Origin: Escherichia coli
GTDB lineage: Bacteria; Pseudomonadota; Gammaproteobacteria; Enterobacterales; Enterobacteriaceae
Assembly: GCF_013122565.1 (NCBI RefSeq)
Contig: NZ_CP053258.1
DNA: 64,000 bases
Direction: 5' to 3' (one strand)
Each line of letters starts with the position of its first letter. Within the stretch, counting starts at the first letter, position 1. Of the stretch, positions 61,929 through 63,541 are shown piece by piece. The notes under the pieces were generated by a model, which did not search any database, was not told the DNA's origin, and was given only the letters and a program-made list of their open reading frames with translations. A program made the position numbers and the translations under genes.

Positions 61929-62037
61929 ATATTCATCCCTGAAATGTATTAATGAAATAAACGATATTTTACGCGCAATAAATGTTTGGTGCATTAGTTG
62001 TTTGAGCGAAAAATATCTGGAAAGCAGATCACAGTAA

Positions 62038-62120
62038 ATAAAAAAACCTGCTGGTGAGGCAGGTTCTTTTATTTACTACAGTGACGCTAACTTGCTGATT
62101 GTGCAACATTTCGTACCAAC
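62038..62120 (-). ncRNA. orzO: OrzO-like type I antitoxin sRNA (about 83 nt)
   Basis: Minus-strand promoter (-35 TTGCAA at 62150-55, 17-bp spacer, -10 TATAAT as reverse complement of 62127-32); 5' region complementary to the zorO 5' UTR; ends at hairpin aacctgc-tggtgag-gcaggtt (62045-62065) followed on the minus strand by TTTTTTT. Confidence 0.7.
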
Positions 62121-62126
62121 GAATAA

Positions 62127-62177
62127 ATTATAACCATATCCACACTCCATTGCAATTCAGTGAGTGAGATTTATAAT
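62127..62177. promoter_or_regulatory. Overlapping divergent promoters of orzO (-) and zorO (+) sharing one -35 hexamer
   Basis: Palindromic TTGCAA (62150-55) serves as -35 for +strand -10 TATAAT (62172-77, 16-bp spacer) and -strand -10 TATAAT (62127-32, 17-bp spacer). Confidence 0.65.
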
Positions 62178-62358
62178 CCTGCCCGTTGGGAGGTTGTGCC
62201 GGATCGGACCAATTTTAAGTCCTGGCTGCCGGACGGGTGGTGCCGCAGGCGGTGCCCTGATCCGGAGAGCAACGTTTCGTACCAACATACGTAAACCAGT
62301 ATCGACAGGCAGTGTAAGGGTAAGGTGCTGGTGTTGCGCTCCTTAATAAGGAGAGCGG

Positions 62359-62448
62359 ATGGACACGCTGACACAAAAGTTAACCGTGCTCATTGCCGTA
62401 CTGGAGTTATTAGTGGCTCTGTTACGGTTGATTGATTTGTTGAAGTAA
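62359..62448 (+). CDS. zorO: Type I toxin ZorO (29-aa hydrophobic peptide)
   Basis: Hand translation MDTLTQKLTVLIAVLELLVALLRLIDLLK*; strong SD aaggag 5 nt upstream; about 174-nt 5' UTR from the predicted TSS; matches my recollection of ZorO from E. coli O157:H7. Confidence 0.85.
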   Translation: MDTLTQKLTVLIAVLELLVALLRLIDLLK

Positions 62449-62469
62449 CGGGCAAATTGAAACGCATCT

Positions 62470-62496
62470 AAGGGGGAATACCGTTTCCCCCTTTAA
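62470..62496 (+). terminator. Terminator hairpin after zorO
   Basis: Stem aagggggaa / ttccccctt with 6-nt loop, short T tail. Confidence 0.55.
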
Positions 62497-62645
62497 TAAA
62501 ATGATTACATCTTCCATTAATTCACCCGATAACTTTTTTCATATTTATAAATTCATCGATTTTATAATCAACGTACTATTTGGCCGGGATGTGAATAATC
62601 ATGGTGGGCTATTGGCGAAAAATATCTGGAAAGTAGATCGCAGAA

Positions 62646-62729
62646 AATAAAAGAACCTGCTGGTGAGGCAGGTTCTTTTATTTACTACTTTGATGTTAAG
62701 TTACTGATAGTGCAACATGGCATCTCAAC
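62646..62729 (-). ncRNA. orzP: OrzP-like type I antitoxin sRNA
   Basis: Same architecture as orzO: -35 TTGCAA 62759-64, -10 reverse complement of 62736-41, hairpin 62654-62674 plus T-run on the minus strand. Confidence 0.65.
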
Positions 62730-62735
62730 GAACGA

Positions 62736-62786
62736 ATTATAACCACCTCGGGGCCGTGTTGCAATTAAGATAATGAGATTTATAAT
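62736..62786. promoter_or_regulatory. Overlapping divergent promoters of orzP (-) and zorP (+)
   Basis: Shared TTGCAA (62759-64); +strand TATAAT 62781-86; -strand TATAAT reverse complement of 62736-41. Confidence 0.6.
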
Positions 62787-62967
62787 CCTGACTGTTGGGA
62801 AGTTGCGCCGGATCGAACCCATTTCAAGTCCTGGCTACCGGACGGGTGGTGCCGCAGGTAGTGCTCTGATCCGGAGTGCAACATGGCGACTCAACATACG
62901 TAAACCAGTATCGACAGGCAGTGTAAGGGTAAGGTGCTGGTGTTGCGCTCCTTAATAAGGAGAGCGG

Positions 62968-63057
62968 ATGGACACGCTGACAAAAAAGTTAACCGTGCTC
63001 ATTGCCGTACTGGAGTTATTAGTGGCTCTGTTACGGTTGATTGATTTGTTGAAGTAA
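62968..63057 (+). CDS. zorP: Type I toxin ZorP (29 aa; one substitution, Q6K, relative to the upstream copy)
   Basis: Hand translation MDTLTKKLTVLIAVLELLVALLRLIDLLK*; identical SD and context to zorO. Confidence 0.85.
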   Translation: MDTLTKKLTVLIAVLELLVALLRLIDLLK

Positions 63058-63078
63058 CGGGCAAATTGAAACGCATCT

Positions 63079-63105
63079 AAGGGGGAATACCGTTTCCCCC
63101 TTTAA
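63079..63105 (+). terminator. Terminator hairpin after zorP
   Basis: Same aagggggaa / ttccccctt hairpin as after zorO. Confidence 0.55.
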
Positions 63106-63110
63106 TAAAG

Positions 63111-63238
63111 CTATACTCGTCATACTTCAAGTTGCATGTGCTGCGACTGCGTTCGTTCACCCCGGTCACTTACTTTAGTAAGCTCCTGGGAATTCACTCG
63201 CTTATCGCCTTCCTGCAACTTGAATTATTTAGAGTATA
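63111..63238. repeat. ERIC (IRU) enterobacterial repetitive intergenic consensus element
   Basis: Reverse complement of 63150-63198 reads gtgaattcccaggagcttactaaagtaagtgaccggggtgaacgaac, matching the ERIC core GTGAATCCCCAGGAGCTTACATAAGTAAGTGACTGGGGTGAGCG; terminal inverted repeats ctatactcgtcatacttcaagttgca / tgcaacttgaat...agagtata. Confidence 0.85.
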
Positions 63239-63541
63239 TTATTCTATTTCTTGGTTGAATATATTCTGTAGTTCGCGATTAAAAATTGCTATTACCGTTT
63301 CAGGTGATTCACCTCGTAATTTCCGCTCATCAATACACTCATCTCTTATATAAATCAACGCATCATTTATTTGCGGGTCGGCATCATTAAATGTTGGATG
63401 TAGCCGGAATCGCTCCAGCCGGTAGACGGAACCTGTAAATAATTCAGAGCATTTATGGATCTCAAGTCTGAAGGAAAACGGATCTTCAGGTACAGGGACC
63501 TCATAATCGTAAATAGCAACCAGCTCTTTTTGCACGATCAT
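63239..63541 (-). CDS. yehK: Small uncharacterised protein (YehK-like)
   Basis: 100-aa ORF MIVQKELVAIYDYEVPVPEDPF...; the position between yehI and yehL corresponds to yehK in K-12; identity by synteny only. Confidence 0.5.
   Translation of the reverse strand: MIVQKELVAIYDYEVPVPEDPFSFRLEIHKCSELFTGSVYRLERFRLHPTFNDADPQINDALIYIRDECIDERKLRGESPETVIAIFNRELQNIFNQEIE

Follow-up and report, generated by a model that had tools for sequence, protein, structure and literature searches.

Between yehL and yehK of Escherichia coli, an array of zor-orz toxin-antitoxin units can end directly beside an ERIC/IRU repeat, which leads one to ask whether the repeat marks the edge of an accessory island or whether it reached a resident locus on its own. 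We addressed this question in a 64,000-nucleotide stretch of E. coli DNA (contig NZ_CP053258.1), hereafter the window, which carries two zor-orz units and a full-length ERIC copy. The junction was aligned among representative loci from E. coli and outgroups, and its alleles were counted among 5,426 complete E. coli genomes. Taken together, we consider it probable (roughly 85%) that the repeat is an ordinary ERIC MITE, inserted a single time at a TA dinucleotide 3' of the TAA stop codon of yehK when the toxin-antitoxin array was already present.

ERIC elements are MITEs with terminal inverted repeats, TA termini and a target duplication (PMC2229807, PMC3184786), for which no cognate transposase is known (PMC2229807). 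The initial annotation had recognised a full-length copy with terminal inverted repeats in the gap that separates a zor terminator from the yehK stop codon, and our alignments bear this out, with the start moved by one nucleotide from 63111 to 63112. The full-length element comprises 127 nt with the following parts:

63112-63238, no strand assigned: ERIC element, called from end-to-end alignment with unlinked ERIC copies and from a long predicted hairpin (z = -6.7)
63112-63136, no strand assigned: left terminal inverted repeat, 25 nt, 84% complementary; starts with TA, one of the two target copies
63214-63238, no strand assigned: right terminal inverted repeat; ends with TA, the second target copy, and includes the 17 nt retained in K-12 (63222-63238)

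The element starts with TATACTCGTCATACTTCAAGTTGCA and ends with TGCAACTTGAATTATTTAGAGTATA, the two ends pairing as the 25-nt inverted repeat. The window copy escapes a search with the textbook 44-nt ERIC core when up to 3 mismatches are allowed, because five substitutions are spread across its core. The strict search was replaced by a primer-wise comparison and by alignment to other ERIC copies. On the minus strand, the centre of the element reads GTGAATTCCCAGGAGCTTAC...AAGTAAGTGACCGGGGTGAACG, with three mismatches to the ERIC1R target and two to the ERIC2 target, the sequences compared being those which we take to be the ERIC1R and ERIC2 primers. The window copy aligns end to end with unlinked copies in the ybhI-ybhJ and yajO-dxs spacers, the edges of homology falling at the same bases, at a mean column identity of 85% with the flanks included. 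Folded as RNA, it is predicted to form one long hairpin of -49.5 kcal/mol, compared with a mean of -27.1 kcal/mol for shuffled sequences, none of 200 shuffles matching it. The consensus fold across ERIC loci contains 41 pairs, nearly all of them invariant and one of them compensatory.

Rfam contains no ERIC family, and the sole model touching the element is V_AS5, an ERIC-like Vibrio hairpin, which matches over its full length with 40 bits, below its gathering score of 96. As a side observation, this model (Vibrio antisense RNA AS5) aligns whole-length to 63116-63239 on the minus strand, and the family may represent an ERIC-like repeat of Vibrio, not a dedicated sRNA. When a 261-nt junction query including ERIC (window 63040-63300) was searched by megablast, the median number of places matched in an E. 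coli genome was six, indicating that the family is dispersed. All ERIC copies that we inspected are intergenic, the one at the yehK site lying between convergent genes. Across the 64-kb window, we found neither a second ERIC copy nor a cognate transposase. The sequence at 63112-63238 is a regular member of the ERIC family. This family, also named IRU or RU-1, was reportedly described by Sharples and Lloyd in 1990 and by Hulton and colleagues in 1991, and its evolution in E. coli is said to have been treated by Wilson and Sharp in 2006.

The surroundings of the element comprise two tandem zor-orz units and yehK:

62040-62113, minus strand: orz antitoxin sRNA gene of the yehL-proximal unit, Rfam OrzO-P (RF02083), 88.8 bits against a gathering score of 60
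62359-62448, plus strand: zor toxin ORF of the yehL-proximal unit, 29 aa, ZorO sequence (unit 62010-62618 with a 117-nt spacer)
62649-62722, minus strand: orz antitoxin sRNA gene of the ERIC-proximal unit, Rfam OrzO-P (RF02083), 90.2 bits against a gathering score of 60
62968-63057, plus strand: zor toxin ORF of the ERIC-proximal unit, 29 aa, Q6K variant (unit 62619-63110, by sequence zorQ-class)
63079-63102, plus strand: ERIC-proximal zor terminator hairpin with a 9-bp perfect stem, kept in all zor-bearing alleles
63239-63541, minus strand: yehK, encoding 100 aa in this allele owing to an in-frame loss of 5 aa; TAA stop directly abutting ERIC

The left end of ERIC lies 9 nt past the terminator hairpin, and immediately after its last base comes the yehK stop codon, TTA at 63239-63241 when read on the plus strand and TAA when read on the minus strand. 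Both Zor ORFs encode MDTLT(Q/K)KLTVLIAVLELLVALLRLIDLLK, and the promoter-like sites within the units are arranged divergently. The zor-orz genes of the window have the make-up of a type I toxin-antitoxin locus, namely an Orz sRNA recognised by a curated model and a divergent ORF for a hydrophobic 29-aa Zor with a long 5' UTR. The terminator beside ERIC had been ascribed to zorP. However, the ERIC-side unit, which encodes Q6K here, is 98% identical to the second unit of LD91-1 (ZorQ, A20S), and the yehL-side unit is 99% identical to the zorO unit of O157. In an O157 genome, the ZorP (T3S) unit adjoins yehL and the ZorO unit adjoins yehK. Judged by these identities, the ERIC-adjacent unit is zorQ-class and not the zorP of EDL933, which corrects the naming of the units in the window. 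In GCA_052983875.1, the Q6K unit is the only one, and it is accompanied by the same ERIC.

On both sides, the locus is embedded in the syntenic core genes yehM, yehL, yehK and yehI, and every genome examined has conserved core sequence at the flanks. The earlier observation that no integrase or transposase flanks the locus is confirmed by this synteny. The locus is at most 94% identical to those of complete E. coli genomes, which would suggest a non-coli Escherichia as the source. This origin is rejected, since O157-lineage genomes match a housekeeping stretch of the window at 99.6% identity and the low value at the locus stems from the differing unit types; the window is thus E. coli in a broad sense. 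No complete E. coli genome combines exactly these two units with a full ERIC, and one NCBI assembly has at least two units together with an ERIC of identical length. Two Logan assemblies, SRR11451224 and SRR11451197, match the window at 100% identity over 63116/63119-64000, their contigs ending inside ERIC. Short-read draft genomes, whose contigs break inside ERIC, will thus under-report the architecture of the array and the repeat. As for yehK itself, the window allele has a 15-nt in-frame deletion converting FHQRDRED into FND (100 vs 105 aa), which it has in common with E. coli SCU-313 and Escherichia sp. MOD1-EC7003. The gene is unusually divergent between strains, with nucleotide identities of 88-94%.

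The alignment of representative loci revealed a series of alleles at the junction. With one or two zor-orz units, the site can be empty of ERIC and then reads ...TTTAATAAAGC-TA-TTTTTC... or ...AATAAAC-TA-ATATTC..., as found in E. coli strains MLI106K3, ZF8-1, SCU-313, NS-NP030, c1-17, 3150 and CUVET16-465. It can carry the full 127-nt ERIC, e.g., in Z247 (...AAAGC-TA[...]TA-TTATTC...), or the full ERIC with a 78-nt internal insert at an otherwise identical junction, e.g., in IHE3034. A short form of 56 nt, found in O157 and LD91-1, is the exact product expected from a deletion between two internal 8-nt CTGCGACT repeats, and its full-length precursor with O157-like ends is present in strain Z1323CEC0015. 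Nissle 1917 carries a second short form with another right end, and MG1655 represents the K-12 type. The comparison of empty sites (...AAA(G)C-TA-T(T/A)ATTC) with filled ones (...AAAGC-TA[ERIC]TA-TTATTC) revealed a single TA in the former and a TA at both ends of ERIC in the latter, i.e., the target duplication expected for ERIC.

We counted these alleles among the 5,426 genomes with junction-specific queries, in which one flank was too short to seed a match alone and a coverage of at least 80% was taken as the exact junction. The K-12-type junction is the most frequent (1,842 genomes, 34%), followed by the empty ERIC site with zor-orz (1,395 genomes, 26%). The O157-type short form accounts for 949 genomes (17%), a count that includes a few full copies with O157-like ends, and the full-length ERIC with or without insert for 906 (17%), about 300 of which bear the insert at the yehK site. 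The remaining ~6% are of the Nissle type, disrupted by IS elements or without the region. The allele proportions among 40 evenly spaced genomes agree with this census.

Several of the rarer forms deserve a separate description. The insert of 78-80 nt sits at a fixed internal position of the ERIC at the yehK site (locus sequence 1144-1222 in IHE3034; also in Escherichia sp. MOD1-EC7003) and copies of it with ~93% identity lie in two spacers elsewhere, preT-yeiS and yajO-dxs, the latter a known ERIC site. The insert was found in 645 genomes, usually once per genome, and the lower-identity matches inspected lie in ERIC copies at other loci. The preT-yeiS site of the window is free of ERIC. The insert looks like a secondary insertion targeting ERIC, a type of event that Sharp reportedly described in 1997. 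The right end of the short ERIC in Nissle 1917 (locus sequence 1105-1160), GAAGTATGATGAGTATA, is a near-perfect complement of its own left terminal repeat, unlike the other alleles at the yehK site, and could have arisen by hairpin-templated correction or by gene conversion from another ERIC copy. IS elements were found at two places: an IS3-like element inside the zorO unit of Z1323CEC0015 (locus sequence 344-1413) and ISVsa5 (IS4 family) inside the K-12-type remnant of D72 (locus sequence 1567-2775).

The most informative allele is that of K-12. MG1655 has been described as lacking the zor-orz locus (PMC3919570). Loci with orz only, retaining 27-29 nt of the zor UTR, were subsequently reported for ~30% of E. 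coli, along with expression of OrzPmg in MG1655 (PMC11264685); the text of that report contains neither the term ERIC nor the term recombination and offers no mechanism for the orz-only state. In our alignment, K-12 retains ~210 nt near-identical to the zorP-orzP unit of O157, including an orz that scores 99.9 bits with Rfam OrzO-P, and the similarity ends at ...CGGATCGGACCAATTT, which lies ~30 nt inside the zor 5' UTR. From there, K-12 continues with GAATTATTTAGAGTATA, a 17-nt sequence identical to the end of the window ERIC, and then with TTATTC and yehK. At the junction, ...GGACCAATTT, up to which the near-identity with zorP-orzP extends, is joined directly to GAATTATTTAGAGTATA. The two sides have a microhomology of 5/6 nt (CAATTT/CAACTT), with an imperfect extension to ~11 nt between CAATTT(T)AA of the unit and CAACTT(G)AA of ERIC. 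From the comparison with the K-12 junction, the corresponding positions in the window are:

62210-62215, no strand assigned: CAATTT, located in the 5' UTR of zor in the yehL-proximal unit, equivalent of the left deletion endpoint
63216-63221, no strand assigned: CAACTT, microhomology on the ERIC side and right endpoint of the K-12-type deletion

In the second unit, the equivalent of the left endpoint is CCATTT at 62820-62825. Compared with the O157 zorP unit, MG1655, which keeps the orphan orz (locus sequence 639-714), has four substitutions that form a cluster immediately downstream of the former -10 box of zor.

The 17-nt ERIC stub at the junction fixes the direction of change: the orz-only state derives from one that bore both ERIC and the toxin. 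The deletion parent would have carried a P-type unit beside yehL and a TTT-variant right end of ERIC, ...CAACTTGAATTATTTAGAGTATA, with a deletion of ~390 or ~1,000 bp; such a parent was not observed as an extant genome. Alignment of the junction with K-12 had been proposed as a way to define the boundaries of the locus. It does place the right end of the deletion inside ERIC, but the left edge is no island boundary, as orz persists beyond it. A full ERIC with unrelated boundaries was not seen in genomes lacking zor, which carry only the 17-nt stub, itself a boundary of the deletion.

To place these alleles in a longer history, we searched for YehK beyond E. coli, and three non-coli Escherichia loci form the whole outgroup basis. 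E. whittamii has two units and an empty ERIC site, AAAC-TA-TTATTC, where yehK ends with TAA and the TA follows directly. Escherichia sp. E1V33 has one unit and a full ERIC 97.7% identical to that of the window, and Escherichia sp. MOD1-EC7003 has one unit and an insert-bearing ERIC, both at the same site and in the same orientation. These loci indicate that the array is older than E. coli and that the ERIC insertion is common to its nearest relatives. In MOD1-EC7003, ERIC is followed by the flank TATA-ACTC rather than TATA-TTATTC, so that the yehK TAA is lost and the ORF runs four codons into ERIC (…EIELYSK, then stop). Two other interpretations were considered and dismissed. A recombination breakpoint at ERIC in E1V33, suggested by the 97.7% identity of ERIC and 88% of yehK, was not borne out, as the binned identity is a mosaic with yehK diverging fast throughout and with no clean switch. 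An insertion of ERIC into the TA of a yehK TAG stop codon, suggested by the TTTTTC flank of MLI106K3, is ruled out by the two flank variants of E. coli and by the TAA-TA of E. whittamii.

Based on these alleles, we propose the following history. A zor-orz array would have been established between yehL and yehK before any ERIC was present. One ERIC would then have entered the TA directly 3' of the yehK TAA, in the short gap between the convergent yehK and the last zor, and the copy would have decayed in place by internal deletion, by internal insertion and by the K-12 deletion. The short form arose by a deletion between the internal CTGCGACT repeats. The K-12 allele has a single deletion that starts near nt 30 of the zor 5' UTR and stops near position 110 of ERIC, at the CAAyTT microhomology; it removed all toxin genes and left the orphan orzP together with the 17-nt ERIC stub. 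Independently, the array would have changed back and forth between one and two units, plausibly by recombination between the 609-nt zor-orz units and not by ERIC, presumably as unequal exchange. Because 1,395 of the 5,426 genomes, as well as E. whittamii, have zor-orz but no ERIC at its site, ERIC is identified as the later and independent insertion. On grounds of parsimony, we infer a single insertion, old enough to predate or span the separation of E. coli and its closest cryptic clades. Once in place, the element would presumably be transcribed as the 3' tail of the yehK mRNA, where it is modelled to fold into the long hairpin.

The initial annotation had viewed the repeat as the border of an accessory zor-orz island, acquired or lost by recombination between repeats, an idea in keeping with the position of ERIC directly beside the array in the window, with the absence of mobility genes from the flanks and with the one end of the K-12 deletion that lies in ERIC. 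Loss without a mobile element still holds, in the form of a plain deletion, but homologous recombination between repeat copies as its route does not, since the junction is a microhomology of 5/6 nt and no second ERIC exists within 64 kb. Furthermore, the repeat and the array vary independently: 26% of the genomes, like E. whittamii, combine zor-orz with an empty ERIC site, and orz with the left ~210 nt of the unit is kept where zor-orz had been called absent. With the deletion endpoints inside the unit and inside ERIC, and with flanks of conserved core sequence in every genome examined, we regard an island bounded by this repeat as very improbable. A different objection concerns the number of insertions. 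ERIC alleles at the yehK site differ by up to 10% (the window vs Z1323CEC0015), a difference that could be due to age, to gene conversion by ERIC copies elsewhere or to more than one insertion at a favoured TA. If the TA after the yehK stop were a hotspot, the full, short, insert-bearing and Nissle-type forms would stem from several insertions, and some empty sites would be precise excisions; the very different right end of the Nissle short form and the recurrence of the same 78-nt insert in ERIC copies elsewhere would fit such a hotspot as well. However, the insertion point and the orientation are identical in all copies, and the full-length precursor with O157-like ends exists, the deletion between CTGCGACT repeats explaining the short form exactly. 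The TTATTC flank is common to the filled alleles and K-12 but not to the empty sites of E. coli. To our knowledge, transposition of ERIC has never been seen experimentally. Repeated insertion therefore appears distinctly unlikely to us. No empty site has the exact flanks of the filled alleles (TTTTTC or ATATTC in empty E. coli sites vs TTATTC in filled ones), so that excision may or may not have contributed to the empty sites.

ERIC might also be kept as an RNA element, with a hairpin at the 3' end of the yehK mRNA that sets its stability or blocks read-through antisense to zor, thereby insulating the toxin gene. The strong predicted hairpin with its 41 consensus pairs, the retention of both terminal repeats in the short form and the absence of any predicted canonical terminator on the minus strand between yehK and the array are compatible with this explanation, and copies of ERIC in Yersinia modulate the decay of flanking mRNAs via RNase E (De Gregorio 2005, per PMC2229807, PMC3184786). 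Even so, ERIC is absent in 26% of the genomes and destroyed in 34%, and an internal deletion, a 78-nt insertion and a truncation are all tolerated, so that most genomes lack the element or have it truncated or disrupted. The almost invariant pairing, with its single compensatory pair, shows only a recent palindrome and gives no sign of selection on structure. Maintenance as an RNA element is unlikely in our judgement, even though a role of ERIC in the stability of the yehK 3' end or in the insulation of zor is conceivable by analogy with the Yersinia copies. A bolder extension of the single-insertion history would be that the hairpin-forming arms of the ERIC palindrome promoted the slipped or microhomology deletion by which zor was lost and OrzP orphaned or, in a weaker version, that ERIC insulates zor from read-through antisense from yehK. 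This extension we consider rather doubtful. If it were true, the insertion of a MITE beside a type I toxin-antitoxin locus would be the direct cause of the decay of that locus in about one-third of E. coli, including K-12.

The proposed single insertion of ERIC beside a resident array adds little to the understanding of mechanism and bears mainly on the history of the locus. The zor-orz array would be an ancestral locus of Escherichia, not an acquired island, and the ERIC at the yehK site a later MITE insertion, whose six or more allelic states provide a natural series for ERIC decay. The widely used "zor-orz-free" K-12 background is the product of one deletion from the zor 5' UTR into ERIC, making OrzPmg a relic of an ancestor that bore both ERIC and the toxin. 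The ERIC-anchored deletion junction appears to be the only detail so far undescribed, the element, the toxin-antitoxin locus and the orz-only state having been published already.

Among known systems, the closest to the array is the zor-orz locus of EDL933 (Fozo 2010; Wen 2014, PMC3919570; PMC11264685). Both consist of two tandem units between yehL and yehK, each with an ORF for a 29-aa Zor and a divergent Orz sRNA above the Rfam threshold for OrzO-P. They differ in order, with a zorO-type unit on the yehL side and a zorQ-class unit on the yehK side in the window, whereas the EDL933 lineage has zorP on the yehL side and zorO on the yehK side. They also differ in the repeat, which is full-length in the window and the 56-nt short form in the EDL933 lineage. 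The K-12-type allele is the same state as the orz-only loci of OrzPmg, with an intact orzP and ~27-29 nt of the zor 5' UTR, and its frequency of 34% compares with the ~30% reported (PMC11264685); here, the right side of the junction is identified in addition as the last 17 nt of ERIC.

Correia/NEMIS, RUP and the ERIC copies of Yersinia, the latter with RNase E-dependent mRNA decay, resemble the window ERIC in architecture and in their typical 3' untranslated location. Whereas these MITEs affect neighbouring transcripts, an effect of the window ERIC is hypothetical. Compared with the ERIC/IRU family at large, the window copy has the same length of 127 nt, the terminal inverted repeats, the TA termini with their duplication and the central core. 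It likewise lies outside genes, just past a stop codon, with a transcript predicted to form a long hairpin, and short internally deleted forms as well as insert-bearing forms occur at the yehK site as they do in the family. Nothing essential sets the window copy apart from its family, the sole local oddity being that its right terminal repeat served as a deletion endpoint in one-third of E. coli.
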